DNA of 64,000 nucleotides from positions 7,227 to 71,226 of the forward strand of contig CAZKFB010000001.1 in assembly GCA_964551965.1 (NCBI GenBank), written 5' to 3'. Both the position numbers and the translations under genes were made by a program. This document shows, piece by piece, positions 3,736 to 21,000 of this stretch. Source of the stretch: an uncultured Muribaculaceae bacterium. Lineage in GTDB: Bacteria; Bacillota_I; Bacilli_A; RF39; UBA660. Each line of letters opens with the position of its first letter. Within the stretch, counting starts at the first letter, position 1. The notes under the pieces were generated by a model. The model was given only the letters and a program-made list of their open reading frames with translations, searched no databases and was not told where the DNA came from.

Positions 3736-5304
3736 ATGGGGTTAGCAAAAGAATCAGGACATAAGCAAGATAATTTCTTCTTATTCTTTCCTATGTATGT
3801 ATGTTTAGGAGTATATTACATTTTAAGAACTTTAGTTTCTCCATTATTAATTGTTTGGAATTCTTTATCAGATTCATTATATAGTGGAATTACTAAAAGA
3901 AATAATGCTGATGATGGTAGAATCTTCATGACTGAGCAAGAGAGATTAGATTATATTAAAGCTCAGGAATCAAAGAATCCGGAAGAAGCTAAGAAAGAAA
4001 TACATGTAAATCCTAAATTAATAGAAGAAAGAGAAAACTTAATTAATGCTATTGATTCAGGAACAGAAATAAGAAGTGATAAACCAGTAACATATCGTTA
4101 TACAGCTTTAACTCCAGAAGGAAAGCAAGTTACTAATTCATTCTATGCTTTTTCTAAAGTTGAAGTTTATACATTCTTAGAGAATGAAGGATATAAAGTA
4201 TTTAAAATAGAGACTTCTCCAATGATTGAAAGATTATATGGACCAAGTAAGTTTAATACAGGAAGAATTAGTACTAAGAATATAGTTTTCTGGTTACAAC
4301 AATTATCTACATATTTAAAGAGTGGAATACCATTAACTGATGCAATGCGTATTTTAAGTAAACAAATGGGTAGAAACAAGAATATTAAAAGAGTTTTTGA
4401 TGCTGTTGTATATAATTTAACATTAGGTGAAAGTTTCTCAAGTGCTTTGGAAAAACAAGGAGAAGCATTCCCAGCATTATTAATTAATATGGTTAAGTCA
4501 GCAGAAGCTACCGGAGATCTTGAAGGAACACTTGATGAGATGGCTGATTATTATAAGGCAACAGAGACAACTAGAAAAGAAATGATCAGTGCTTTAACTT
4601 ATCCTTGTCTAGTAATGTTCTTCTCAATATGTGTTATTACATTTATTCTTGTATATTTGATACCTCAATTTGTTGGAATATATGAGACTGCCGGAGTTAC
4701 TTTAAATCCAATTACAGCCGGTATTATTGTAGCAAGTAATTATTTAAAAGCTAATTTATTCTATATTATATTAGTAGTTGCAATGATTATTGTCGTACTT
4801 TATGTTTTATATACGAATATTAAAGCATTTAGATATTTTGCACAAACAGTATTAATGAAAATTCCAGTAATTGGAAAAGTAATTATCTATAAAGAAATGA
4901 TGATATTTACAAAAACATTCTCAAGTTTACTTAAGAATAATGTATTTATTACTGAATCTATGGATATTTTAAGAAAAGTTACTAATAATGAAATTTATAG
5001 AGAGATAATGATTAATACTATAAATGCTATTGGTCGAGGAGAAAAGATTTCGACATCATTCTATGGCCATTGGGCTATTCCCGAAGTAGCTTATTATATG
5101 ATGGTTACTGGTGAATCTACCGGTGAACTTGCTGAAATGATGGGAAAAGTAGCAGATTATTATCAAGAACAACATAAGATGATTGTCGATTCAATGAAGA
5201 CATTAATTGAACCTATCTTAATTATTTTCCTAGCAGTTGTTGTTGGTGGAATTATAATTGCTGTAATTGTTCCAATGTTCAGTCTATATCAAAACTTAAT
5301 GTAA
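3736..5304 (+). CDS. Type IV pilus / T2SS platform protein (GspF/PilC/ComGB family)
   Basis: Two T2SS-F repeats are recognisable: (1) NIVFWLQQLSTYLKSGIPLTDAMRIL...GESFSSALEKQGEAFPALLINMVKSAEATGDLEGTL, and (2) ALTYP...LIPQF...SSLLKNNVFITESMD...GESTGELAEMM. Three TM segments. AGGTG RBS before 3736. An alternative start at 3928 would drop an odd hydrophobic N-terminus. Confidence 0.8.
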   Translation: MGLAKESGHKQDNFFLFFPMYVCLGVYYILRTLVSPLLIVWNSLSDSLYSGITKRNNADDGRIFMTEQERLDYIKAQESKNPEEAKKEIHVNPKLIEERENLINAIDSGTEIRSDKPVTYRYTALTPEGKQVTNSFYAFSKVEVYTFLENEGYKVFKIETSPMIERLYGPSKFNTGRISTKNIVFWLQQLSTYLKSGIPLTDAMRILSKQMGRNKNIKRVFDAVVYNLTLGESFSSALEKQGEAFPALLINMVKSAEATGDLEGTLDEMADYYKATETTRKEMISALTYPCLVMFFSICVITFILVYLIPQFVGIYETAGVTLNPITAGIIVASNYLKANLFYIILVVAMIIVVLYVLYTNIKAFRYFAQTVLMKIPVIGKVIIYKEMMIFTKTFSSLLKNNVFITESMDILRKVTNNEIYREIMINTINAIGRGEKISTSFYGHWAIPEVAYYMMVTGESTGELAEMMGKVADYYQEQHKMIVDSMKTLIEPILIIFLAVVVGGIIIAVIVPMFSLYQNLM

Positions 5305-5323: not shown

Positions 5324-6088
5324 ATGGATGTGATTGTGGTTTATCTGTTTATAGCAGGATTATTCTTTGGTTCATTTTTCAATTGTATTGCAAATAGACT
5401 AAGTAAAAATGAATCGATAATTCGACCAGGATCACATTGCGAAAATTGTAAACATGAATTAGCCTGGTATGAATTAATACCAGTTTTTTCATACATTTTT
5501 TTAAGAGGTAGATGTAAGAAATGTCATACTAAATTGAGTGTATGGTATCCATTAACAGAAATTATAACGGGATTATTGTTTGCTATTTCTTATATTCGAT
5601 TTGGTTTTACTATTGAAACTCTTATATCAATTACTATTGTTTCTATTTTAATTATTACATTTATAAGTGATATTAGTTATTATATTATACTAGATGAAGT
5701 AGTATTTATTGGGCTCTTGATAATGGTTGTATTGATGTATTTTAACTCAGGCGTTACGGGACTTATAAAGAGTATTATTGGTTGCTTATTTATTGGTGGT
5801 GTAATGACGTTCATTAAGTTAATAGGGGATAAAGCATTTAAAACAGAATCATTGGGATGGGGAGATATTAAACTAAGTTTAATAGCAGGATTTATTCTAG
5901 GTATTAGATTAGGTGCTGTATATATCTTTTTAGGTTCTCTTATAGCTTTACCGTTTGGAATTATTTTATCTTTTAAAAGTAAATCAAAGATTATACCTTT
6001 CGGACCTTTTTTATCGATAAGTTTAATTATTATATATTGGTTTAGCCCAGTATTTTATTCAATTTTAAATATTTTGTTAGGAGTATAA
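5324..6088 (+). CDS. Prepilin peptidase (A24 family, PilD/ComC-like)
   Basis: N-terminal zinc-binding CENC....C..C tetrad, a polytopic membrane profile and a GWGDIKL catalytic-Asp motif (GGGDVKL-like). RBS AGGAGGG upstream. Confidence 0.85.
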   Translation: MDVIVVYLFIAGLFFGSFFNCIANRLSKNESIIRPGSHCENCKHELAWYELIPVFSYIFLRGRCKKCHTKLSVWYPLTEIITGLLFAISYIRFGFTIETLISITIVSILIITFISDISYYIILDEVVFIGLLIMVVLMYFNSGVTGLIKSIIGCLFIGGVMTFIKLIGDKAFKTESLGWGDIKLSLIAGFILGIRLGAVYIFLGSLIALPFGIILSFKSKSKIIPFGPFLSISLIIIYWFSPVFYSILNILLGV

Positions 6089-7626: not shown

Positions 7627-7742
7627 ATTTTAAGATTAACATGTAAAGTCATTAAAACTTATGTCGAATAGTGTTGAGAATAACATACTTTATGGTAAAA
7701 TCTAAAGTAGAAATAATAACATAGAAAGAAGGAAGTAAGAAA

Positions 7743-8324
7743 ATGAAAGGAAAAACAAAAAAGAGCATTTTAGTTCTAGTAGTACTACTATCAATAGGAT
7801 TTGCAGCTGTAACTACTACATTAACAATTAACGGAACACTTCGTTTAGGAGCAAATCAGGATAATTTCAAAGATAATTTGATTTTTACAAAAGCTGAATT
7901 GACATATTCTGAAGATGTTTCAACAGAAGTAGAAGAAGGAGAAAATGCAACAATTTCTGTAGATGGAAAGTCAATATCATTTACTACAAGAACACTAAAG
8001 AATATTGGAAGTGTAGCAACACTAACATATGATATAACTAATAATTCTCAATATACTGCAGAATTTACGGGAATTACTTGTACAGTTACAAATAGTGATG
8101 GAGTTGATGTAACAGATGCAGTAAAAGGAAATACTGATTATATTACATTAGATGCTAAAGATTTCACTAATGAAAGTGGAAATATAAAAATCAAACCTAC
8201 TGAAAAAGTTGAAGGTCATACCTTAAAAGTTGGTATGAGAAAATCATTTGTAGGTGATGAAACTAATAATCAAACACAATATACAATAAATTGTACTATT
8301 AATGCTTCAGGTTTATCTGATTAA
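7743..8324 (+). CDS. Small secreted protein with TasA/camelysin-type (SipW-cognate-like) signal peptide
   Basis: n-h-c signal MKGKTKKSILVLVVLLSIGFA|AVTTTLTINGTL. The G-x-F-A cleavage context resembles TasA (GTWA|A) and camelysin (GTFA|F). The gene immediately precedes a SipW-type peptidase. RBS GAAGGAAG upstream. Confidence 0.55.
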   Translation: MKGKTKKSILVLVVLLSIGFAAVTTTLTINGTLRLGANQDNFKDNLIFTKAELTYSEDVSTEVEEGENATISVDGKSISFTTRTLKNIGSVATLTYDITNNSQYTAEFTGITCTVTNSDGVDVTDAVKGNTDYITLDAKDFTNESGNIKIKPTEKVEGHTLKVGMRKSFVGDETNNQTQYTINCTINASGLSD

Positions 8325-8332
8325 TAATAAGA

Positions 8333-9475
8333 GTGGTGAGAAATATGTTAAAATATGTACTGCAAGTACTTTCAATATTATTAACGATTTCTCTTTTATT
8401 CTTTAATATTTATATTTCAAAATCAATAAGTTTTATCTTTACTCTTGCAGTACTAATAGGTCTCTTAATCGTGAGCTTTTTCTTGTGTGGATATAGAAGA
8501 ATAGATAAAAGGGACTATAAATATAAGATTTTGCTTATAGCAGGATTAGCATTTGTTCTTCAGAGTATATTATTCTTGATTGGAACAAAGACAGGATATA
8601 TTGCAAACTATAGCTCAATATTTAAAAATTATATTGAAAAGAATATGGTATTAACAGTATTCTTAATTATATTAGTAAGAGAAGTTGTTCGATATTTAGT
8701 ATTAAATGTACGCGCAGCAACTAAGATGCAAAGTATACTTATTAATGTTTTACTTGTAGTTATGTGCATATTAGTAGATATATCTATTTCTACTAAAATA
8801 TATACATTTACTTCATTTACATTAGTTTACGAATTTGTTGCATTATTCTTAATACCTAGTGCAGCAAAGAATATTTTACTCAATTATTTGAGTATTATTG
8901 GAGGCTATCCAATTACTATAATATATATATTAATCATGGATTTATATATTTATTTCATGCCAGTAAGACCTAAATTAAATATGTTGCTAGAATCAATTAT
9001 TTTACTAGTATTTCCATATTTAGTATATAATTATATAAGAAAGTTAAATAATAAGAAAACGATTATAAAGAAAAAAGAAAAGAGAAAAAATAAAGTAGTT
9101 AGTTTAATTTCATCAATAGTATTTATTCTACTTGTATGTTTGGTTTCAAGAGAATTTAAATATTCAATGATTGGGATAGGTTCTGAATCAATGACTGGTA
9201 CAATAAATAAGGGAGATGCAATAATTTATAAAAGACATGAAGGTCACGAAAACCTAATGAATAGAGTGATTGTATATAAAAGGAAAGACATAATGATTGT
9301 TCATCGTGTTATAAAAGTTTATGCTTTAGATGATGAGTATGTATTTCAAACTAAAGGAGATGCAAATGAATCGGCAGATAATTGGCTAGTAGAAGAAAAA
9401 GATGTACTGGGTACAGTAGAGTGGCGTATACCACTCATTGCATGGCCATCAGTTTTACTAAGCGAAATATTTTAA
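8333..9475 (+). CDS. Polytopic membrane protein with C-terminal ER-type signal peptidase I domain (S26B, SipW/Sec11-like)
   Basis: The C-terminal ~120 aa carry the S26B boxes GSESMTGTINKGD (SGSMEP-like catalytic Ser), IVHRVI (catalytic His) and TKGDANE (KGDNN-like). They are preceded by the peptidase's own TM (VVSLISSIVFILLVCLV). The N-terminal ~270 aa are a separate domain of about 7 TMs. Confidence 0.75.
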   Translation: MVRNMLKYVLQVLSILLTISLLFFNIYISKSISFIFTLAVLIGLLIVSFFLCGYRRIDKRDYKYKILLIAGLAFVLQSILFLIGTKTGYIANYSSIFKNYIEKNMVLTVFLIILVREVVRYLVLNVRAATKMQSILINVLLVVMCILVDISISTKIYTFTSFTLVYEFVALFLIPSAAKNILLNYLSIIGGYPITIIYILIMDLYIYFMPVRPKLNMLLESIILLVFPYLVYNYIRKLNNKKTIIKKKEKRKNKVVSLISSIVFILLVCLVSREFKYSMIGIGSESMTGTINKGDAIIYKRHEGHENLMNRVIVYKRKDIMIVHRVIKVYALDDEYVFQTKGDANESADNWLVEEKDVLGTVEWRIPLIAWPSVLLSEIF

Positions 9476-9492
9476 AATTGGAGTGGTAAATA

Positions 9493-10578
9493 ATGGAAAA
9501 AGTTGAATTACCAATTTTGAGAGGAAATAATAATAAAAAATCAATACCTTTAACAGTTACTGTTGGACTTATTATATTAGTTGTACTATTACTTATAATA
9601 AGTTTATCATTAACATTCAAAAAGACTTATAAGATAAATTATAGTGATTCTTCCGATTTAGATTATAAGGTATATTTAAAGAAAAACTCTCATTTTGATA
9701 CACAATATTTAGGAAAAGATAAACAGTATATTTCATCATTAATAGACTACATTGATGCAGATTTCACTTATAATTTTTCTAGTGAAGATGATATTGATAT
9801 CGATTATGAATACTATATATTAGCAACTCTTAATATCACAAATGCTGATGGTAAATCAATATATGAGAAAAAAGAGTATTTACAAAACATTAAAAAAGCA
9901 ACTTCAGATAACAATGCTTTAAATATTAAAGAAAACGTGAAAATTGATTATGATAAGTATAATAGAATAGCAAAAAGTTTTATTAGTGATTATGATTTAA
10001 CAGCTAATGCCAATCTAGTTATTAGTTTAATGGTCAATGTTAAGGGTAAGAATTCAAACTTTGATAAGACCATATCTGATGCTGGGGTAATTAAACTTAA
10101 TGTCCCATTAACAACTAAGACAGTAGATATATCTATGGACTATGAATTATCAAATAATAAGAATGCCACATTGCAACAAAGAGAAACAGTCATAAAGAAT
10201 AAAGCATTATTTATTGGTGGTGTTATATTTATAATTGTTGATATTTTAAGTATTATTGGTATTGTAGTTCATATTATAATTACTCGTGATGAAAAAGAAA
10301 AATATCGAGTAGCATTAAATAAAATATTAAGAGATAATGAAAGATATATAAGTGAGACTATTATTACTGAAAGAGTAGAAGATATGTTAAAAACTAGATC
10401 GTTAAGAATTGAAGTAGTAAAGAGCTTTAATGCTTTAATGGATATAAGAGATAGTTTAAACAAACCAATTCTCTACCATGAAGAGAAATTAGGAGAAGAA
10501 GCAGTATTCTATATATTAAGTGATCATATAGGTTACATATATGTAATGAATGTAAATGACTTTAAGAAAAAGAGATAA
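9493..10578 (+). CDS. N-terminally anchored membrane protein, unknown function
   Basis: Signal-anchor LTVTVGLIILVVLLLIISLSL, then a hydrophilic domain and a second TM near residue 230. RBS TGGAGTGG upstream. Lies inside the SipW-like locus. Confidence 0.5.
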   Translation: MEKVELPILRGNNNKKSIPLTVTVGLIILVVLLLIISLSLTFKKTYKINYSDSSDLDYKVYLKKNSHFDTQYLGKDKQYISSLIDYIDADFTYNFSSEDDIDIDYEYYILATLNITNADGKSIYEKKEYLQNIKKATSDNNALNIKENVKIDYDKYNRIAKSFISDYDLTANANLVISLMVNVKGKNSNFDKTISDAGVIKLNVPLTTKTVDISMDYELSNNKNATLQQRETVIKNKALFIGGVIFIIVDILSIIGIVVHIIITRDEKEKYRVALNKILRDNERYISETIITERVEDMLKTRSLRIEVVKSFNALMDIRDSLNKPILYHEEKLGEEAVFYILSDHIGYIYVMNVNDFKKKR

Positions 10579-10593
10579 CTATCTCTTTTTTTT
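10571..10593 (+). terminator. Intrinsic terminator
   Basis: GAGATA/TATCTC hairpin overlapping the stop, followed by a 7-T run. Confidence 0.6.
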
Positions 10594-10678
10594 GATAATT
10601 ATAATTATTGAAAATATATATGTTAAGTTATATAATAAAAAATATAGGATAGTACTATATAGGAAGTAGGTATTAACC

Positions 10679-12670
10679 ATGAATAGAAAGTTTTATGTTT
10701 TATTTATAGCTTTATTCTTAGTCGTTGGTTTTGCCGCTTTATCTACAACTCTTGATATAAAAGGACTTTTATCTATCGGATATAAAGAAGATGATTTTGA
10801 TGTTTATTTTAGTTTTGCTTCGTATCTTGAAAATACCGATAGTTATATAGAAATAACCGATAAAAATCAATTTATTTTTACTCCTAATATAAGTCAAGAT
10901 GATAAAACTTTAACAATTAATTATGAAGTTGCTAATGCAAGTCATCAATATGATACAGAAATAGAAGTTAATTGTTCTCCAATAAATCAAGAGTATACAA
11001 ATATCGAAAATAATCTTAAAGATAGTTTTATAAAAGCTAGAGACATTGGTGAAGGAACAGTAGTAGTTTCTTTGAATGAGTCAGCTACCGGAGAAGAAAC
11101 GATTAATGATAGTTATAAATGTGTTTTAGAAACTAAAGCTATATCTAGAACGGAAGTTGATAATTCAAGTATAGCAAGGTTTATAGAAATAGATGGTAAG
11201 AAAACTAATGTAAAAGAATGGAGAAATATTGATTTAGCTTATACGAGTTCAACTGATACTATTTATGCTAGAAGTGATGATGAATATCTATACTTATATG
11301 CAGATAATAATGAAAACTTAGATTACAAAAATATAAGACTTTATATTTCTACTACTGCTTCATCTTCTCTACAAGTATATAACTATTTGATTGAAAATAA
11401 TCGTGCTTATTCTTATGATAATGGAGCAACTACACTTGTTGGTCATACTGATTATAGAATAGATGAGGGATTAGAATATAAAATTCCATTAAGCGTTTTG
11501 AACGTTTCTTCAATTAATGAAATAAATACAATTAGATTGCGATATGCTGGTAGTAGCTATGAGACTTTAAAAGAGTTTGATATATTTTTGAAAAGAGATT
11601 CTATTATTGTTGATGGTAATAAAACTTATGTTAGTGAATATACAGATGAAGATGTTATTTATGAAAAAGGTAATGCAATTGTATACGCAAGAATAATAGA
11701 TGATTATATTTATTTTTATGCTTATGATAGTAGTTTATCACAGGATGACTTAACTAATCCTTCAATTTATGTTGGTAGTAGATCCGATAATATTACCAAG
11801 AATTTAACTACCGGCTATATGATTTGGTATGAAACATCTCTTTTATCTTGTAATTCAGTTTCTTGTAATAATTCAATTCCTGATAGTAATAAGTATAATC
11901 CATTAAGAGCTATTTCTTCCGGAGTAGAGTTTAAAATACCATTAGGTGTATTAGATATGAAGACAATGAATGATTTAAAAGTTGTAAGAATATTATATAG
12001 AAATTCTTCATGGCAAGAAGTTAAGACAATTGATGTAAGTCTTCTTTTAAAATATACACAAGAAGATTTAGTTGGTAAGACTTATGTACTAGCTAATAAA
12101 CCTACTGAATGGAGTAACATGTATATTTATCTTGATAATATGACATGGCCAGGAGAAGAAATGGGTATTCTTACTGATATGGAGAATTCCTATGTATATG
12201 TCTTACCTGATAATATAGAATCTGCTTATGCTGTGTTCTCATGTAAAGAAGGAGATTCATATCCAATAATTAATCAAAATATATTTAAAATTGAAAAGGG
12301 TAAGAGTAGAAAATGGGATTCTACAAAAGAAGGATTATTATCATGGAGTTATATAGATAGTTCTTATGAATCGACTGATTTAGGAATTAATTTTAAATTA
12401 ACTGTTCCTCAAGGTAAAACTGATGGTGGATGTGTATACTTGTATGATGCTGATGCTACATTAGATAAATTACATGCTTGGCCTGGAGTATATTTAACAA
12501 AAAATGGAACAGAATATACTGGAAGAATAGATGATATCAGTAAGTATAATAAAGTAAGGGTAATATTTAACAACTGTAATAAGGGATGGCAATTCCCATC
12601 AGTTGATGGAATATATGTAAAACCAGGCACTACTTTAACTTACGATGGATTAGGAGCTTATGCTAATTAA
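10679..12670 (+). CDS. Large secreted protein with the same SipW-cognate-like signal and conserved mature N-terminus
   Basis: Signal MNRKFYVLFIALFLVVGFA|ALSTTLDIKGLL parallels the 7743 gene (GFAA-(V/L)-(T/S)-TTL-x-I-x-G-x-L). 663 aa, no further TM. RBS GGAAGTAGG upstream. Confidence 0.6.
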   Translation: MNRKFYVLFIALFLVVGFAALSTTLDIKGLLSIGYKEDDFDVYFSFASYLENTDSYIEITDKNQFIFTPNISQDDKTLTINYEVANASHQYDTEIEVNCSPINQEYTNIENNLKDSFIKARDIGEGTVVVSLNESATGEETINDSYKCVLETKAISRTEVDNSSIARFIEIDGKKTNVKEWRNIDLAYTSSTDTIYARSDDEYLYLYADNNENLDYKNIRLYISTTASSSLQVYNYLIENNRAYSYDNGATTLVGHTDYRIDEGLEYKIPLSVLNVSSINEINTIRLRYAGSSYETLKEFDIFLKRDSIIVDGNKTYVSEYTDEDVIYEKGNAIVYARIIDDYIYFYAYDSSLSQDDLTNPSIYVGSRSDNITKNLTTGYMIWYETSLLSCNSVSCNNSIPDSNKYNPLRAISSGVEFKIPLGVLDMKTMNDLKVVRILYRNSSWQEVKTIDVSLLLKYTQEDLVGKTYVLANKPTEWSNMYIYLDNMTWPGEEMGILTDMENSYVYVLPDNIESAYAVFSCKEGDSYPIINQNIFKIEKGKSRKWDSTKEGLLSWSYIDSSYESTDLGINFKLTVPQGKTDGGCVYLYDADATLDKLHAWPGVYLTKNGTEYTGRIDDISKYNKVRVIFNNCNKGWQFPSVDGIYVKPGTTLTYDGLGAYAN

Positions 12671-12680
12671 TTTAAAAAAT

Positions 12681-12709
12681 AAATCTCAAGATTATTCTTG
12701 AGATTTTTT
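12681..12709. terminator. Bidirectional intrinsic terminator between convergent genes
   Basis: 11-bp perfect stem AAATCTCAAGA / TCTTGAGATTT with a T-run on + and an A-run upstream (T-run on -). The stop codon of the minus-strand gene lies in the loop. Confidence 0.75.
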
Positions 12710-13939
12710 AATTCCTAGTTCATAATTATGATCTTGATTTAATATGTTTTCTAAAGCTTCTAATTCTTCATTGATTGAATTTAACCAAAATTCTTTATCT
12801 TTACTAGAACTATTAATATATTCATTAACTAAGTCATGAAGAGTACGATCTAGATTTTCAATATCTTTAATACCTTTATAGTATTCAATCTTATTAGATA
12901 AGTCTAAGTATCTATCTAATGCACTTATGCACTTATGTTTTTTAAGAGCTTTAGAAATAAATGTTTCAATAGTTGAACCAGAGAAATCTAAATTTTGCAT
13001 AATAGTTACAACATATTGTATTTCTGCTATTCTAAGTGTTTTCTTAAGTATGTGATTTTCTAAATCATAATACTTAGATATAATTTGCATTCCTTCATAA
13101 TAATCATTTTTAGATATCATTGGTTCAGATTCTACTCTAAATGATTCAGTATTTATCTTAGGAGTTTTATCTTCATTTAGTTTCTTTTTATCTATTTTCT
13201 CAAATACACTTGATAAAGATTCCGGTTTAGAATAACCTAGTAAAGAGAATGCTTTAATTATAGAATCAATATTACATTCTTCTTTTATTTCTATCTTTAA
13301 TAAATATTCATCTTCTAATAGATGATGAGCTTTCTTAATATCCTCAAATTCTATACCTTCAGCAGTATCGGTGTATATGCCATTATATATATTATTTGCA
13401 ACTATACATAAAGTAGCACTTATGATATCTTGTTTGTTCATACACATTTCTTCAAATAGAGTAAACATTTCATTAAACTTATAGAAAATACTATCAGATC
13501 TTTCCGTTAATAAATCTCTTAATATTCCGTTAGTAGATATTAAAGTTGCAAAATGTAATAAATCTCTTTTTATTAATCTATAATGAGCATGTTTTGTTAA
13601 CCATTTATTAGTTTTCTTACTTCTTTTAGATAAATCATCATAAAAAGGTTCTAATTCGTCATATTCAACTTTTAATTCATATTCATCTAAGTGTTCTGAA
13701 TATCCATTATAGTAAATAGATAATAAGTTATTTCTAATAATTATCTTCATTATTTCATTTAATAGGTTATAAACTTTAATAATAGATTCTGCTTTAAATC
13801 TATTTCTAACAGCTTCCGAATAATAATCATAAGATTCAACTATACTATCTATTTGATTATCTGTGTAGCTATCTAGTGTTTGCAATAATTCCTTTCTTGA
13901 TACTAAAAAATCTTTATTTGTTGTCATATTAATCCTCAT
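12692..13939 (-). CDS. Hypothetical cytoplasmic protein (415 aa)
   Basis: Long minus-strand ORF with no TM or signal and no recognised domain. Confidence 0.5.
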   Translation of the reverse strand: MRINMTTNKDFLVSRKELLQTLDSYTDNQIDSIVESYDYYSEAVRNRFKAESIIKVYNLLNEIMKIIIRNNLLSIYYNGYSEHLDEYELKVEYDELEPFYDDLSKRSKKTNKWLTKHAHYRLIKRDLLHFATLISTNGILRDLLTERSDSIFYKFNEMFTLFEEMCMNKQDIISATLCIVANNIYNGIYTDTAEGIEFEDIKKAHHLLEDEYLLKIEIKEECNIDSIIKAFSLLGYSKPESLSSVFEKIDKKKLNEDKTPKINTESFRVESEPMISKNDYYEGMQIISKYYDLENHILKKTLRIAEIQYVVTIMQNLDFSGSTIETFISKALKKHKCISALDRYLDLSNKIEYYKGIKDIENLDRTLHDLVNEYINSSSKDKEFWLNSINEELEALENILNQDHNYELGIKKSQE

Positions 13940-14165: not shown

Positions 14166-16382
14166 GTGATATTTATGGACAATAAGAAAGTTTATTATAG
14201 ATATTTAGATATAATAAGAGTATTTTTTTGTATAGCAATACTTTTTTATCACTTAGATATTATTAAGGGTGGTTATCTTGCCGTATGTTCTTTTTTTGCA
14301 TTAAGTGGATATCTATCTGTTATATCTTCAATGAGAAAAGATAATTTCTCATTAAAGAACTTTTATATAAGTAGAATAAAGAAAATATATTTACCATTAG
14401 TTATAGTTGTATTCTTAACAGTTGCTATTGTTAATGTATTTGATATTATTTGGTTGAATCTTAAACCGGAAACTACATCTATATTACTTGGATTTAATAA
14501 CTTTTGGCAGTTAAGTGTTAATTTAGATTATTTTGCACATCATATAGATTCACCATTTATGCATCTATGGTATGTAGCAATTCTATTACAATTTGAATTA
14601 ATATTCCCACTTATTTATATTCCACTTAAGAAATTAGGAGATAAAGTAAATAAATTATTACCGGGAAATATAATGCTTGTAATATCTATTTTGGGATATG
14701 TATTCTTCTATAGAATGTGTTTAAGTGGTAATTTAATGTTCCCATACTATAATACATTTACAAGGGTATTCTCACTTACATTCGGGGTTGCTTTAGGTTT
14801 CTTACATGGATACTTTAAACCATTAGTACCTAAATTATTAAGAGGTAAGAAAACAGTTAATGTTATAATGGGTATATATATGATACTTCTTACTATCATG
14901 TTCTTTACCATTGATGCATCAAATAAATATTTCTGTGCTGGTATATTACTATCAACTTTATTTGCTTTAAGATTAATAGATTATTCATGTATAAATAATT
15001 TAAATGAAGATAGTAAAGTAATAAGTATTATTAAATACTTATCTAGTATTAGTTATGAATTATTCTTAGTACAATATCCAGTAATATTCTTATTCCAATA
15101 TATTAAATGGAATGTTGTTATAGAAACTATATTAATTATAATTATTACATTTATTATTTCTTCTATTATTCACTTTATCTTAAAAATTAATAAAGAGAAG
15201 TTAGTATTAAAATTAATAATGGCTGTTTTGGTATTAGGTGGAGTATTCTATGGTGAGTATACATATGTAATCACTGAAGATCATTCTAAAGAAATGAAAC
15301 AACTAGAAGATGAATTAACTAAGAATGCTGAAGATGCTAAGAGAAAGCAAGAACAATATAAGAAAGAATATGAAGATGCTCAAAGAGAATATGAGGAAGC
15401 TTTAAAGAATCTTGATAAAGATAAAGACAACATTAAGAATGTTGTTGATAACTTACCTGTCGTTGGTATTGGTGATTCAGTTATGTTAGGAGCTGTTAAG
15501 AGCCTTGAAAGTGTATTTCCTAAAGGAATATTCAATGGAGAAGTATCCCGTACTGCTTATGCTGCAAATGATATATTACTAGAATATAAGAATTCGGGAG
15601 TATTAGGTGACTATGTAGTATTCAATCTTGGAACTAATGGAGATTCATCAGCAAAGTGTAAAGCAGAAATCATGGAAACTTTAGGAAATCGAGAAGTTTA
15701 TTGGTTGACAGTTACTAATGATGAAGAAGTTCACTTTAATGATAAGATTAAAGCTTATGCAAGTAAGTTTGAGAATGTTCATGTAATTGACTGGGCTGAA
15801 GCTGCAGTAGGCCATCCTGAATACTTCTATGCTGATGGCATTCATTTGACTCCTCCCGGAAGAAAAGCATATGCTGAAGTTATCTACAATGCTATCTATC
15901 AAGGTGTATTAGATAGAATAGATAGATTAAAGAGTGATCTAATGCAAGATCATGAGAATAGTACCAAGAATAAAATAACATTCTATGGAAATGATTTATT
16001 GTTAAATTCTTATGATTTAATAGAAAAAACTTTTAATAATTCTAATTTTGAAATAGATTCTGATTATACTACTGATAAACTAATTAAAAAAATAAATAAT
16101 AGTATCAAGAATAAAACAATAACTAATACTTTAGTATTTGTCTATGATTCAACATCAGATATCGATTATAAAAAAGTAATAGATTTAGTTAAAGATAAAA
16201 ATGTATACATTATAACAACTAAAGATATTGAAATTAATGTTGATAATGTCAAAGTTATAAACATTAAGAATGATTTGAATAGCAATGCTGATTATTTAAG
16301 ACCTGATAAAACCCATTTAACTGATAAAGGTAAAGAATATTTAAATCAAGTATTAATAGATAATGTAAAAAAGTCTAGTTAA
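14166..16382 (+). CDS. OatA-like O-acetyltransferase: acyltransferase-3 membrane domain + SGNH hydrolase domain + extra C-terminal domain
   Basis: N-terminal ~360 aa are polytopic and start with the AT3 pattern (RYLDIIRVFFCIAILFYHL). A coiled-coil linker rich in KE follows. The GDSL/SGNH block I is VVGIGDSVMLGA, with later GTND and DGIHLT motifs. About 160 extra residues follow the SGNH domain. Confidence 0.8.
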   Translation: MIFMDNKKVYYRYLDIIRVFFCIAILFYHLDIIKGGYLAVCSFFALSGYLSVISSMRKDNFSLKNFYISRIKKIYLPLVIVVFLTVAIVNVFDIIWLNLKPETTSILLGFNNFWQLSVNLDYFAHHIDSPFMHLWYVAILLQFELIFPLIYIPLKKLGDKVNKLLPGNIMLVISILGYVFFYRMCLSGNLMFPYYNTFTRVFSLTFGVALGFLHGYFKPLVPKLLRGKKTVNVIMGIYMILLTIMFFTIDASNKYFCAGILLSTLFALRLIDYSCINNLNEDSKVISIIKYLSSISYELFLVQYPVIFLFQYIKWNVVIETILIIIITFIISSIIHFILKINKEKLVLKLIMAVLVLGGVFYGEYTYVITEDHSKEMKQLEDELTKNAEDAKRKQEQYKKEYEDAQREYEEALKNLDKDKDNIKNVVDNLPVVGIGDSVMLGAVKSLESVFPKGIFNGEVSRTAYAANDILLEYKNSGVLGDYVVFNLGTNGDSSAKCKAEIMETLGNREVYWLTVTNDEEVHFNDKIKAYASKFENVHVIDWAEAAVGHPEYFYADGIHLTPPGRKAYAEVIYNAIYQGVLDRIDRLKSDLMQDHENSTKNKITFYGNDLLLNSYDLIEKTFNNSNFEIDSDYTTDKLIKKINNSIKNKTITNTLVFVYDSTSDIDYKKVIDLVKDKNVYIITTKDIEINVDNVKVINIKNDLNSNADYLRPDKTHLTDKGKEYLNQVLIDNVKKSS

Positions 16383-16995: not shown

Positions 16996-17340
16996 ATGAA
17001 ATTTATTAAAATAAAACCCACAACTAACTATAGTAATGAATCTATTATAAAACTATTTATTGAAGATAAATATTATCTTCATAAGACAACTATCACATTA
17101 ATACTTAACTATCCATTAGAAATAATCAATGGAATACCTGATGAATTAATAATACTAGTTCATAAAGGAGTAATTAATCAAGCATATATCAAGAGATTGG
17201 TATATAAAGAATCAACAGATAAAGAAGAAATAATAAAAGAATATTTGGAAATACCAAATATTTTTTTATTTAAAGGGGTTAATCATATTAAAACAAGCTG
17301 TAAAAATTTAGAAATAGAAATGGAGAATATATATGAATGA
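16996..17340 (+). CDS. Hypothetical protein (114 aa)
   Basis: ORF overlapping the start of the tail-collar gene by 8 nt, which suggests translational coupling. No recognised domain. Confidence 0.4.
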   Translation: MKFIKIKPTTNYSNESIIKLFIEDKYYLHKTTITLILNYPLEIINGIPDELIILVHKGVINQAYIKRLVYKESTDKEEIIKEYLEIPNIFLFKGVNHIKTSCKNLEIEMENIYE

Positions 17341-18001
17341 AAATATAAATAATTGTTTTACAGAAATTGAAGATGGAAAGATAAATGCTAAATTCAATAA
17401 AGCAACAATGAAATGCTTCGATTCAGAAAATAATAAATTTAGCATGGATTGTGATGGTAATTTAGTAGTTAATTCTATTATTACAAGAGAACAAAGTGGA
17501 AGTGGCCTAACATTTAATCAAGTGTATCCAGTAGGATCGATTTATATGAGTGTAAGTTCAATAGATCCTAGTACATTGTTTGGAGGAACTTGGGAACAAG
17601 TTAAAGGAAGATTTTTACTTGGCTGTGGAAATAATGGAGATGGAAATGATTACCTTGCTAATAATGTTGGTGGAGAAGCATCTCATCAATTAAGTATTAA
17701 TGAAGTACCAAGCCATGCTCACTATGTTAATTTGGTTACTGGAGCTAATGGAGCACATAATCATAATCTAAGAAGAGATATGGTAGGTAATGAATTTGGA
17801 ATCGGCGGAGGAAATTCTGTTGGAAACAGTTTAAACGGAACTTGGTCAAATACTAGTATATGGCCTAATTCTATTGGAGCATCTAGTGCTGGAATTCATA
17901 ATCATACTGTTTCCGGAAATACTAATGCTAATGGTGGAAGTCAATTCCATAACAATATGCCACCTTATCTTTGTGTATATATTTGGAAAAGAGTTTCTTA
18001 A
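17333..18001 (+). CDS. Phage tail collar domain protein (MdpB-like)
   Basis: Gly/Asn-rich repeats with HxH boxes (HAHYVNLVTGANGAHNHNL, HNHTVSGNTNANGG) and the terminal NMPPYL motif typical of phage tail-collar / microcystin-dependent protein family members. Confidence 0.7.
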   Translation: MNENINNCFTEIEDGKINAKFNKATMKCFDSENNKFSMDCDGNLVVNSIITREQSGSGLTFNQVYPVGSIYMSVSSIDPSTLFGGTWEQVKGRFLLGCGNNGDGNDYLANNVGGEASHQLSINEVPSHAHYVNLVTGANGAHNHNLRRDMVGNEFGIGGGNSVGNSLNGTWSNTSIWPNSIGASSAGIHNHTVSGNTNANGGSQFHNNMPPYLCVYIWKRVS

Positions 18002-18020
18002 AGTTCTATAGGAGTGTACA

Positions 18021-21000
18021 ATGAAAGAATTAATTAATTTAAGAAAACAAAGAGAAAAACACTTTCTAAATAAAGATGGAACAATAACTGCATGTATGTA
18101 TGATCATGATATCCATTATTTAGAAAATGGAGAATATAAAGAAATTGATAATACTCTAATAGAAGAGAATGATTATATTACAAATAAAAGCAATGATTTT
18201 AAAATAAGATTTAATAATGATAAATATTTAGTCAATATTAATCTAGGTAATAGCTATTTAAATATAAGTTTAAAAAATGCTAATGAAACAAAATCAAAGA
18301 TAATTAATAATGAAGTAATCTATGAAAATGTTCTACCTAATATAGATTTTCATTATTTAATTAATGGTTCAACATTAAAAGAAAATATCTATTTAAATAA
18401 TGAAATAAAAAATAGTATAATTTTTAATATTGATACTAATTTAAAATTAGAAATAAGAGATAATAAGGTACTTGCATTAGATAAAGATAAGGTTATATAT
18501 ACATTTAATCCATTATTTATGATTGATGCAAATGAAGTAATTAATCGCAATTGTAAATATAAATTAGAAAAAAATAATGATTTTTATGAATTAGAGATTA
18601 TTCTTGATCAAGACTATTTAATGAATGCCAATTATCCAGTAATTATTGATCCAACAATTACAAGTGATAATTTAGAAAATGTATTTGATGTAACTATTAA
18701 TTCAAATGCTGCAGATAGTAATTTTGATTTTTCAAAACATTTATATATTGGAAATGATGGAACAGGAATAAAGCGTGCATTATTAAAATTTGATTTACCT
18801 TTTATTTCTACAGGTTGCAACATTATAAAAGCAACAGTATATTTAAAAAATTCAGTTGCATTTATCCATGAAAATTCTGAGAGAATTGCCGTCCACGAAA
18901 TTACAGAAAGTTGGGATGAATCAACTGCGACATGGAATAACATGAGTAGTAAATTCGATACTAAAATGGAAACTTATCTTGAAACACCTCAAATGTTATA
19001 CCTAGATACAGCATTTGATTTTGAAATAACCAATATTGTAAAAAAATGGTATACCAATAATGTTAATAACGGAATCATGCTAAAATTGTTTGATGAAAGC
19101 CCTAATACAAGTCATGCAGACTATAGCTTTTACTCTAAAACATATGATGGAGTAAATGGAACGGCAGATCGACCATATCTAGTTATTGAATATAGAATGC
19201 AAAATGGTCTATTAGATTATATGACATATGAAAGTATACCCCTTTCGTATGGCGCATCATACATTAATAATAATAATGGTAATTTGATAACTCAAATATC
19301 TTTATCGGAAATATTAGATCAAACAAGTTTATATGGTTTACAAATAACATATAATACAGATAGTATGTTATTAAACCAAAATAATGGTTTCGGATTAGGA
19401 TTCAATATCAGTTATAATGACTATGTAATAAAGACTCCTAATCAATTTATGGAAACGGAATATTTATATAAACTATCTGATGGAACTAGTCATTATTTCT
19501 ATCAATTTAGTAAAGGAATATTTTGTGATGAAGATGGCATAAATCTAACGTTAGAAATTGTTAATGAGGAAAATAATAATTATAAAATTACTGATAAAGA
19601 GGGAAATAAATTTATTTTTACCAATAGTTATTTATCAAAAATAGAATATGTCGATGAAACATTTGTTAATATTGTTAGAAATAGTTCTAATTATATTACA
19701 AGTATTAAAGATAGTAAGAATAATGAAGTTACTATTAACTATAATACAAATCAAGTTTTATTAACATGTAATAATAAAACAATTACTGTTAATTTAACAA
19801 ATAATAAGATAAATAATATTTCATTTAAAAAGGGAAATATTAATTTTAATTATAATGACAGTTCACTTATATCAAAAATTATTGATATTAATGGTTTAGG
19901 TGCAGGATTTGATTATTATGAGGTATCTCCTTATCGTGTAAAGAAATTAACTGAATATGGATTAAATAATGCTACCGGTAAATTCAAAACTTTTACATAT
20001 GAATTTAATTCGACAACAGTAACTGATCATAAGAATAATAAAATTAGATATACTTTCAATAATATGGGCAATACAATAAGCACTGTTATTTTAGGAAGTG
20101 ATGATTCATTAAAGAATTCTTATGGATTTTCAGAAAAATATATAGACGAAGTAAAGTCGGCTGCTACTAATAAAGTATTATCAAGTTCATTACCTATTAA
20201 GTTTACAAAAAATTTAATTAAGAATGGAAACTTTGAGACTACAGATAATAATTTCTTATTCCAGTATAAATCTAATGAAGATAGTTATAATGGCAATTAT
20301 TCAGCAAAAATTAACGCATATGGTAATGGACAAATAGCAAATGTTTTTGAGAGTACAAAAAATTATACTTTTGGTGCGTTTTATAAAAATGAACATCCAG
20401 TCTATATTGAAATATATTCTAAATTAAACACTGATGTAGAAACATTAAAAGAATACATTATTATGCCTAATGATGAATTTACTTATCAAGAAAAAACATT
20501 TGAGACACCTAGTCAGTTTGATTGTATTGGTTTTAACTTCACTGTTTTGTATGATGGAATTGCTTATATGGATGATGTTGTAATAAGCGAAGGAGAGTCA
20601 GCAGGATTATATAATTTAATCGATAACCCAGACTTTGAAGATAATACTGATGGTTGGCTAATTAGTGGAAGTGTTGACGGATCTGAAGAAGAAATAAGTA
20701 ATCCATATCAAATAATTACTTTGTCATCAAATGAAAAAGCTATTCAGTTAAATAGTATTGTCAATGGTGGAGTATCAATGGTTAAAACTTTACCTATTTC
20801 CGGAAAAATTGGAGATGCTTATACCTTTTCTTTTTGGTATAAGAATGAAGGAGTGTTTAATGTTGATTCGGGATTAGTTGGAAATATGGCAGCAATCATA
20901 TTTAACGATCCTGATGATGATTTAGGAAGTGGAACGCAAAATGCATTATTAAATTATCATGCTGATAATTGGCAATATTATACAGATACTTGTGTAGCAG

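Follow-up and report, generated by a model that had tools for sequence, protein, structure and literature searches.

In a full-text search of the literature, DUF5305 proteins appeared in four records from three studies (one study was present both as a paper and as a preprint), which deal without exception with donor-strand fibres and their dedicated signal peptidase (PMC11821415, PMC12337348, bioRxiv 10.64898/2026.01.04.697558). In Haloarcula, deletion of tafD left TafA unprocessed and the filaments were lost, and TafG, a DUF5305 protein, always accompanies TafD (PMC11821415). The structure of the Natrinema Tafi filament revealed assembly by strand donation (PMC12337348), and Sec-type versions of taf occur in Thermococcales and Archaeoglobus (PMC11821415). 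The type I signal peptidase (SPase I) associated with AbpX has ten transmembrane (TM) helices, and DUF5305 was regarded there as an accessory subunit, sometimes fused to the peptidase and reminiscent of the eukaryotic complex (bioRxiv 10.64898/2026.01.04.697558). Here, we analysed a 64-kb stretch of DNA (the window; G+C content ∼26%) from an uncultured gut bacterium, in which four + strand genes at 7743–12670 encode two secreted proteins, a signal peptidase fused to a membrane domain, and a DUF5305 protein. The results firmly support a dedicated peptidase-substrate system, of which the conserved core consists of the subunit(s), the fused peptidase with a CPBP-like and an S26B domain, and the DUF5305 protein. 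We suggest with moderate confidence that the four genes form one operon for a fibre or display system at the cell surface, which requires a signal peptidase of its own and probably works by donor-strand exchange.

Proteins of the CPBP (CAAX-protease-like) group are also relevant to this locus. Some of them, such as MroQ, are true proteases (PMC13559823, PMC12260438). SpdC, LnsB and SpbR are non-catalytic, and their CPBP motifs are degenerate (PMC12260438, PMC13559823). The motifs of LnsB are dispensable, and the protein is involved in modification of the N-terminus of processed lipoproteins (PMC13559823, PMC12260438). In Staphylococcus aureus, the CAAX-like protein SpbR, whose motifs are degenerate, binds both the TM helix and the ectodomain of the signal peptidase SpsB and restrains or inhibits cleavage (PMC12260438).

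The signal peptidase domain

The four open reading frames (ORFs) were found on the + strand where a preliminary description of the locus had placed them, at 7743–8324 (193 aa), 8333–9475 (380 aa when read from a GTG), 9493–10578 (361 aa) and 10679–12670 (663 aa), with gaps of 8–20, 17 and 100 nt in this order. The second ORF exists as described, but its GTG start was not upheld. All homologues of the peptidase protein begin with M-[LFYI]-K-[YF] and are 375–380 aa long, and GTG 8333 falls inside a GGTGA Shine-Dalgarno sequence. For these reasons the true start is almost certainly ATG 8345, giving a fused membrane-domain/signal-peptidase gene of 376 aa at 8345–9475 (+). Residues of the peptidase protein are numbered from this ATG, except that the range of the TIGR02228 match is counted from the GTG ORF.

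The C-terminus had been assigned to the S26B signal peptidases, and this assignment was borne out by the profile search. The model TIGR02228 (sigpep_I_arch) scored 67.6 bits against a curated cut-off of 51.85 at residues 254–375 of the GTG ORF, which are its C-terminal ∼120 residues. The bacterial P-type model TIGR02227 reached 28.8 bits, under its cut-off of 47, and the SipW equivalog NF046067 reached 43.6 bits against a cut-off of 190, for a protein of 376 aa with 8 extra TM helices. Known SipW proteins had been described as stand-alone enzymes of ∼190 aa, in agreement with the 189 positions of NF046067; the equivalence of the present peptidase to SipW did not hold. Human SEC11C and SEC11A were the only matches of the peptidase among PDB sequences (E = 3.4e-8). 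In the alignment to SEC11C, SESM corresponded to SGSM, IVHRVIKV was identical, and TKGDANE corresponded to TKGDNNE. A Ser-His(-Asp) arrangement was found in place of the Ser-Lys dyad, with Ser282 in SESM (9188–9190), His320 in VHR (9302–9304), and Asp339 (9359–9361) and Asp345 (9377–9379) in TKGDANESAD. These four residues were invariant both in the Bacilli alignment (27 homologues) and in the Clostridial alignment. Because TIGR02228 passed its cut-off, the P-type and SipW models failed theirs, SEC11 proteins matched and the catalytic residues were invariant, the peptidase is, judged by its sequence, an enzyme of the endoplasmic reticulum (ER)/archaeal S26B type and not a SipW orthologue. The catalytic domain (9149–9472, +) is predicted to be extracytoplasmic and follows an anchor TM helix (residues 244–268; 9074–9148, +), which is itself preceded by a Lys/Arg-rich cytoplasmic linker.

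The membrane domain

The AlphaFold2 (AF2) model of the peptidase protein was built with 27 homologues and was of moderate confidence (pLDDT 70, pTM 0.58). It showed eight helices within residues 2–238, then the Lys/Arg-rich linker, the anchor helix and the β domain, giving nine TM helices in total, and the loop charges were consistent with an N-in topology and an outside catalytic domain. A polytopic domain in front of the peptidase had been reported before; the fusion proved real and conserved, but the reported seven TM helices were replaced by eight plus the anchor helix. In the predicted structure, the eight-helix membrane domain (8345–9058, +) had the eight-TM arrangement of the Rce1 type, and its best structural match was SpdC. 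At the moderate confidence of the model, a CPBP/CAAX-protease-like fold is predicted for this domain, a feature absent from the preliminary description; we did not find a CPBP-like fold described previously for the membrane domain of such a peptidase. At the sequence level, the domain had no Pfam match in 36 diverse members, and a profile search of PDB sequences was empty at E ≤ 10.

Across the family, at ∼20% identity, only E113, R116, G187 and P224 were invariant, and L18, G84, N176 and L200 were nearly so; the family alignment contained no conserved His or Cys in the membrane domain. The residues E113 (8681–8683) and R116 (8690–8692) lie in TM4 at the position of CPBP motif 1. Among the CPBP motifs EExxxR, FxxxH and HxxxN/D, only this E113-x-x-R116 was kept, with the spacing E-x-x-R and not EE-x-x-x-R, and the His residues of motifs 2 and 3 were absent. 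By analogy with the non-catalytic CPBP-like proteins, the most plausible role of the domain is that of a partner of the peptidase without proteolytic activity of its own. The location of the invariant Glu and Arg in the cytoplasmic half of TM4 suggests that they might contact the basic n-region of a signal peptide. A weak match of the membrane domain to AgrB (E = 0.0038, below the cut-off) was dismissed as noise, since AgrB relies on a catalytic His and Cys that the family does not conserve.

When the membrane domain alone was compared with 1.84 billion representatives in a single-sequence search (E ≤ 1e-3), 352 clusters at 50% identity were obtained. Nearly all of them were proteins of 370–390 aa with the membrane domain at residues 1–245, so that it is in effect always fused. 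Homologues of the whole fused protein numbered at least 688 close ones and at least 1372 for the Clostridial branch (90%-identity representatives), all of ∼370–390 aa.

The DUF5305 protein

The product of the third gene (9493–10578, +; 361 aa) matched PF17231 (DUF5305) with 63.1 bits against a cut-off of 29. It has an N-terminal TM segment, an extracytoplasmic domain, a second TM segment (∼residues 245–263) and a cytoplasmic tail. It had earlier been called an anchor protein. In view of the DUF5305 match and the accessory role of this family in archaeal fibre loci, we propose that it is better described as an accessory protein, and probably a subunit, of the signal peptidase. Its possible use as a subunit-like base was also considered and was rejected, since hhalign against the subunit profile aligned the TM segments only.

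The two secreted proteins

It was found that the products of 7743 and 10679 are paralogous (BLASTP E = 5e-9, 26% identity), with an alignment over the whole of their first ∼155–190 residues. In a six-frame scan of the window, the [IV]G[FY]A motif occurred in these two ORFs only. The shared signal and mature N-terminus noted earlier are real, exceed what chance would give and are part of a longer common module, and the view that the two genes flanking the peptidase gene encode its cognate substrates with a conserved post-cleavage segment was strengthened by this paralogy and by the conservation described below.

The small subunit gene (7743–8324, +; 193 aa), whose product is the presumed major subunit with an Ig-like β-sandwich, begins with a signal peptide (residues 1–21, MKGKTKKS / ILVLVVLLSI / GFA; 7743–7805, +) for which the sequence points to cleavage at A21|A22. 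On cleavage the mature N-terminus would begin AVTTTLTINGTLR, and the amphipathic strand AVTTTLTINGTLRLG (7806–7850, +) is a candidate donor strand from its conservation and periodicity. The region 10679–11146 (+) of the large gene contains the corresponding signal peptide (residues 1–19, VGFA|A), the strand ALSTTLDIKGLLSIG (10736–10780) and a subunit-like Ig domain, and the N-terminal ∼156 residues of the large protein are those homologous to the small subunit. The hydrophobic stretch of the signal is ∼15 residues long, a length that is typical of cleavable signals and too short for a stable anchor.

The N-terminus of the small subunit, MKGKTKKSI..LL.IGFAAVTTTLTINGT, was nearly invariant in 25 close homologues. 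Among 41 diverse members (to 17% identity; ∼20% overall), A21 was invariant, and L27 and G31 were at least 90% conserved. We further aligned on the motif 84 unique N-termini, which came from 61 related loci and the window (62 sources). Gly was present at −3 in 76 of the 84, Phe or Tyr at −2 in all 84 and Ala at −1 in 82; positions +2, +6, +8, +12 and +14 were hydrophobic, +10 was Gly and the odd positions were polar, although the regular expression that gathered these N-termini partly imposes −3 to −1, +6, +8 and +10. The post-cleavage segment has the character of a 13-residue amphipathic β-strand (L-x-I-x-G) directly after a small-x-small cleavage site. At +4, Clostridial members (GYA|A-L-T-D) have Asp and the Bacilli branch has Thr.

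The AF2 monomer of the small subunit, a moderate-confidence model, was a complete-looking 8-strand Ig-like sandwich in which residues 19–28 had pLDDT <50. A TasA-like fold of the subunits, for which the preliminary description had suggested a check, was not recovered. The sandwich is generic, and no match to TasA was obtained with hidden Markov models (HMMs), hhalign (0.7% probability for the subunit profile against a verified TasA sequence) or fold search; HMM searches assigned the subunits neither to Peptidase_M73 or DUF1102 nor to any other consistent family.

Residues C113 and C184 of the small subunit were invariant in the 25 close homologues and may be linked by a disulfide in the secreted Ig-like domain; in the 41-member alignment including Clostridial members, they were neither invariant nor at least 90% conserved. 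The idea that a TINGT sequon marks N-glycosylation was dropped because the 10679 product has K at that position.

The large protein and its paralogues

The large paralogous gene (10679–12670, +; 663 aa) encodes a presumed minor/tip or cargo subunit made up of the subunit module, two ∼140-aa repeats and two CBM26 modules. The repeats lie in tandem at residues 169–304 and 309–455 (11183–12043, +) and were recognised by aligning one half with the other (BLASTP E = 2e-14, 28% identity); they had no Pfam or PDB sequence match, and the C-terminal 506 residues of the protein gave no match in the PDB sequence search. The CBM26 model PF16738 matched two stretches, with 37.9 bits for the whole protein and 39.7 for the C-terminal fragment against a cut-off of 28.1. 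The two CBM26-like modules occupy the C-terminal region (12056–12667, +; boundaries approximate), with the best stretch at residues 585–640 (nt 12431–12598), and by their family they probably bind starch.

In other loci, the same N-terminal module was followed by a glycoside hydrolase family 3 (GH3) domain (5 loci), by DUF285/LRR or by Listeria-Bacteroides repeats. The GH3 paralogues (L025:1024–4224, L026:8550–12449, L029:8508–12401, L030:1168–4383 and L031:8458–11328, where L numbers denote related loci) are proteins of 950–1300 aa that share the signal/strand/Ig module and end in a GH3 catalytic domain (E ∼1e-50); they would attach an enzyme to the putative fibre module. We did not find a previous description of this subunit family, which escapes current HMMs, is very abundant and carries glycan-related cargo.

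Conservation of the gene order

Sixty-four related loci were collected, 59 of them from species-representative genomes and 5 through look-up of the exact protein. All hosts were gut metagenome-assembled genomes (MAGs) labelled as Bacilli, Erysipelotrichales, 'Mollicutes', Clostridia, Oscillospiraceae or Christensenellaceae. The DUF5305 gene was located directly 3' of the peptidase gene in 63 of 63 testable loci, the 64th ending at a contig edge. Of the 64 loci, 61 had subunit genes with the motif (62 of 65 sources when the window is included), usually directly upstream. The core order of subunit(s), fused peptidase and DUF5305 recurred, and the flanking housekeeping genes varied by locus.

In some loci, two or three small subunit paralogues were found in tandem. 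Three such paralogues precede the peptidase gene in L033 (4162–5814) and L035 (4151–5808), with diverged strands (GYASITT..., GFAAITI..., GFAAISL...), as would be expected if they served as major, minor and adaptor subunits. On one MAG contig, the pair of peptidase and DUF5305 genes is present twice, with ∼5 kb between the copies (L012:2009–4284 and L012:7505–9145), and some genomes may therefore run two such systems. No cultured host was found, and the named matches of the Clostridial-branch profile search were all MAGs. Records L006, L007, L016, L025 and L028 are titled 'uncultured Muribaculaceae bacterium' (Bacteroidota) despite their Firmicutes-type operon; these titles probably reflect mislabelling or faulty binning in the source records.

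Other features of the window

Two promoter-like sites were noted in consensus scans, TTGAGA-16-TG-TAAAAT (7674–7701, +) upstream of 7743, which is weak evidence, and TTGAAA-17-TATAAT (10608–10636, +) in the 100-nt gap before 10679, which is a consensus match only. In this AT-rich region such sites were not enriched over shuffles. A bidirectional hairpin terminator with an 11-bp stem and T-runs on both strands (12681–12706) is common to the operon and a convergent gene (12692–13939, − strand). The 415-aa product of the latter could not be assigned to any Pfam or NCBIfam family, and the 64 related loci contained no homologue.

Just downstream, the gene at 14166–16382 encodes 738 aa with an Acyl_transf_3 membrane domain and a weak GDSL/SGNH domain, and its product is a candidate OatA-like O-acyltransferase. 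The gene for a phage baseplate Gp10_C domain protein (17333–18001; 84.7 bits) precedes one for an RHS-repeat protein of 1986 aa (18021–23981), with small ORFs further downstream; the region 17333–23981 looks like a polymorphic-toxin locus. On the other side, directly after rpoA-rplQ, the segment 3736–7626 carries genes for PilC/GspF with a ∼115-aa N-terminal extension (3736–5304), an A24 prepilin peptidase (5324–6088, 1.7 kb upstream of 7743) and a DUF2207 membrane protein. Neither a PilB ATPase nor a recognisable pilin gene was found near this segment, and homologues of PilC, the prepilin peptidase and DUF2207 occurred in none of the 64 related loci.

Discussion

The domain identities, the predicted fold of the TM domain, the paralogy of the subunits, the family-wide conservation of the motif and the strict synteny were computed here. 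On this basis, both structural proteins would be exported by Sec through signals with a basic n-region, an h-region of ∼13–15 residues and [IV]-G-[FY]-A, and the cognate Ser-His signal peptidase would cut after the Ala of the motif. The role that we infer for the eight-helix CPBP-like domain, probably non-proteolytic like SpdC, LnsB and SpbR and tethered to the catalytic domain, is that of a built-in partner, which would bind or gate the signal peptide or regulate cleavage as SpbR does in trans for SpsB. DUF5305 would be a further accessory subunit of the peptidase complex. Cleavage would free the strand from +2 to +14 (L-x-I-x-G-x-h-x-h), which would insert into the Ig-like sandwich of the next subunit. 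In this way the 193-aa protein would polymerise as the major subunit, and the 663-aa paralogue would join via the same strand and Ig module and present its two CBM26 modules. A donor-strand fibre is the most likely product because of the analogy with Tafi, AbpX and TasA and because of the conserved amphipathic strand that cleavage would expose. The general idea of the preliminary description, a dedicated-peptidase fibre with major and minor or tip subunits, gained strong contextual support, because the 9493 product is DUF5305, the accessory of Tafi/AbpX donor-strand fibre loci; the trio was syntenic in all 63 testable loci.

A more far-reaching version, which we regard as doubtful, is that DUF5305 and the CPBP-like and SEC11-like domains together make up a self-contained membrane machine that needs no chaperone or usher, in which the peptidase acts as the polymerase. 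The cavity of the CPBP-like domain would capture the signal peptide, the TM4 Glu/Arg pair would lie beside the basic n-region, and cleavage would be directly coupled to passing the freed N-terminal strand on to the growing fibre. If this were true, gut Bacilli and Clostridia would have fibres that display CBM26 and GH3, a fibre-borne counterpart of amylosome and cellulosome scaffolds.

Several points weigh against a donor-strand fibre served by a CPBP-like peptidase. The CPBP link depends on the single moderate-confidence AF2 model, and PF02517 matched neither the window protein at E ≤ 0.1 nor the 36 diverse members at E ≤ 1. Neither N-terminus matched TIGR04088 at E ≤ 10, although the preliminary description had pointed to this model, and 1 of the 41 family members showed a weak match (E = 0.026). 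No sequence relation or specific fold relation of the subunits to the TasA, AbpX, Tafi or DUF1102 pilins was detectable, and their predicted fold, a generic Ig-like sandwich, need not lack a strand. To these are added the motif positions partly imposed by the regular expression, as mentioned above. GH3 cargo is unusual for pilus tip proteins and would suit plain display or anchoring equally well. Cleavage and polymerisation are both inferred, and no cell anchor was identified.

The main rival is display without a fibre, which is possible, if less probable than the fibre. The shared module would target single proteins, and the CPBP-gated peptidase would control their release at the surface; the proteins might be held by an uncleaved signal-anchor or by binding to DUF5305, resembling the SpbR-regulated cleavage of LtaS by SpsB. 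This explanation is kept alive by the GH3 cargo and by the complete-looking 8-strand sandwich, which has no specific likeness to any donor-strand pilin. The cargo domains are enzymes and binding modules, not typical pilins, and there is a documented case of a signal peptidase restrained by a CPBP-like partner (PMC12260438). Several host MAGs are moreover labelled Mollicutes/Tenericutes, in which sortase-type wall anchoring may be unavailable. However, the most conserved and always-present substrate is a protein of ∼190 aa without cargo, as would be expected of a major fibre subunit. Conservation with β-strand periodicity extends 14 residues beyond the cleavage site in every paralogue, small paralogues occur in tandem as with major and minor pilins (e.g. 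L033 and L035), and all characterised loci with a peptidase and DUF5305 make donor-strand filaments (PMC11821415, PMC12337348).

It is unlikely that the membrane domain is an active intramembrane protease or another enzyme that further processes the substrate, or the signal peptide once released, in a second chemical step, such as degradation of the signal peptide or modification of the new N-terminus; the mature subunits might then form a fibre or not. The invariance of the TM4 Glu and Arg at ∼20% identity, their position at CPBP motif 1 and the near-invariance of N176 would fit an enzyme, as would the precedents of MroQ and LnsB (PMC13559823, PMC12260438). Against this, active CPBP proteases need the His residues of motifs 2 and 3, which are absent here, the family conserves no His or Cys in this domain, the Glu/Arg spacing deviates from that of motif 1, and most characterised bacterial CPBP-like partners are non-catalytic, the motifs of LnsB being dispensable (PMC13559823).

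That the subunits are type IV pilin- or archaellin-like proteins, processed by the A24 prepilin peptidase encoded upstream and assembled with PilC, is highly improbable and effectively refuted by synteny: because PilC, PilD and DUF2207 homologues are lacking in the 64 related loci, the adjacency to PilC/PilD is judged accidental and this reading fails, and in addition the G|F-T-L-x-E motif is absent, Clostridial members and the 10679 product lack a Gly in front of the h-region, the invariant G-[FY]-A ends the h-region rather than starting it, no PilB ATPase is encoded nearby, and the S26B peptidase and DUF5305 always adjoin.

If the reading proposed here is correct, fibre systems with a dedicated peptidase and DUF5305, so far known mainly from archaea and a few cultured Bacillota, extend to uncultured gut Bacilli and Clostridia as a set of hundreds of 50%-identity clusters, with a subunit family that current HMMs miss. 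The fusion would be independent evidence of the Rosetta-stone type that the partnership between CPBP-like proteins and signal peptidases, as in SpbR-SpsB, is widespread and old, and would offer a compact system in which the gating of signal-peptide cleavage by such domains could be studied. The CBM26 and GH3 cargo would further suggest an unnoticed route by which gut Firmicutes present glycan-binding and glycan-degrading functions on their surface.

Compared with Tafi and the Sec-type taf-like clusters, the locus likewise has an S26 peptidase with extra membrane or accessory parts next to a DUF5305 gene (PMC11821415, PMC12337348). Several small paralogous subunits occur together with larger multidomain proteins that have a common N-terminal module, and the N-terminal strands after the signal peptide are conserved, as in the system of TafD, TafG and the pilins TafA/E/C/F. 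Unlike Tafi, it is bacterial (gut Bacilli and Clostridia) and its signals are of the Sec type, not Tat. The peptidase has an N-terminal 8-TM CPBP-like extension, whereas TafD combines 4 TM helices with an Ig-like domain at its C-terminus. Homology of the subunits to TafA/E or DUF1102 could not be detected, and the locus lacks a TafB-type regulator.

The AbpX loci, which occur in archaea and Bacillota, similarly combine DUF5305 and a ten-TM SPase I, reported as structurally distinct, with donor-strand fibril subunits, minor subunits and tip proteins (bioRxiv 10.64898/2026.01.04.697558). A text search of the same preprint for 'CPBP' and 'Rce1' gave 0 matches, and a CPBP-like fold is not mentioned in it. 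Clostridial members share with AbpX and TasA the Asp at +4 (TasA A|AFND), whereas the Bacilli branch, including the window, has neither the aromatic residue at +2 nor the acidic residue at +4, and the present subunits were not recognised as TasA superfamily proteins by HMM, hhalign or fold.

As in tapA-sipW-tasA of B. subtilis, the gene for an ER-type Ser-His signal peptidase lies between those of its substrates. The sequence around the cleavage site is likewise small-aromatic-Ala|Ala (TasA GTWA|A; here GFA|A), and the mature N-terminus, which in TasA is the donor strand, is conserved here as well. In contrast, SipW has ∼190 aa and no extra membrane domain, and the peptidase of 376 aa stays far from the SipW cut-off (43.6 bits vs 190). 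The subunits are neither Peptidase_M73 nor TasA proteins and lack a TIGR04088 match, and the tasA operon is not known to contain a DUF5305 gene.

With SpbR-SpsB of S. aureus, SpdC/LyrA and LnsB, the fusion has in common a polytopic CAAX-protease-like protein with degenerate catalytic motifs, and in SpbR-SpsB such a partner physically pairs with a type I signal peptidase (PMC12260438). The two parts are one polypeptide here, the peptidase is S26B of the ER type whereas SpsB is of the P-type, and the membrane domain has no sequence-level similarity to CPBP proteins. The catalytic domain is closest to SEC11 of the eukaryotic signal peptidase complex (SEC11 with SPCS1/2/3), in which the catalytic subunit is likewise surrounded by additional TM helices and by an accessory protein that spans the membrane once and has an extracytoplasmic β domain, and DUF5305 has been likened to a part of that complex (bioRxiv 10.64898/2026.01.04.697558). 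The accessory parts are, as far as tested, not homologous to SPCS1–3, and the present peptidase is dedicated, not general. Taken together, the operon looks like a bacterial relative of the archaeal Tafi/AbpX and the TasA fibre systems.

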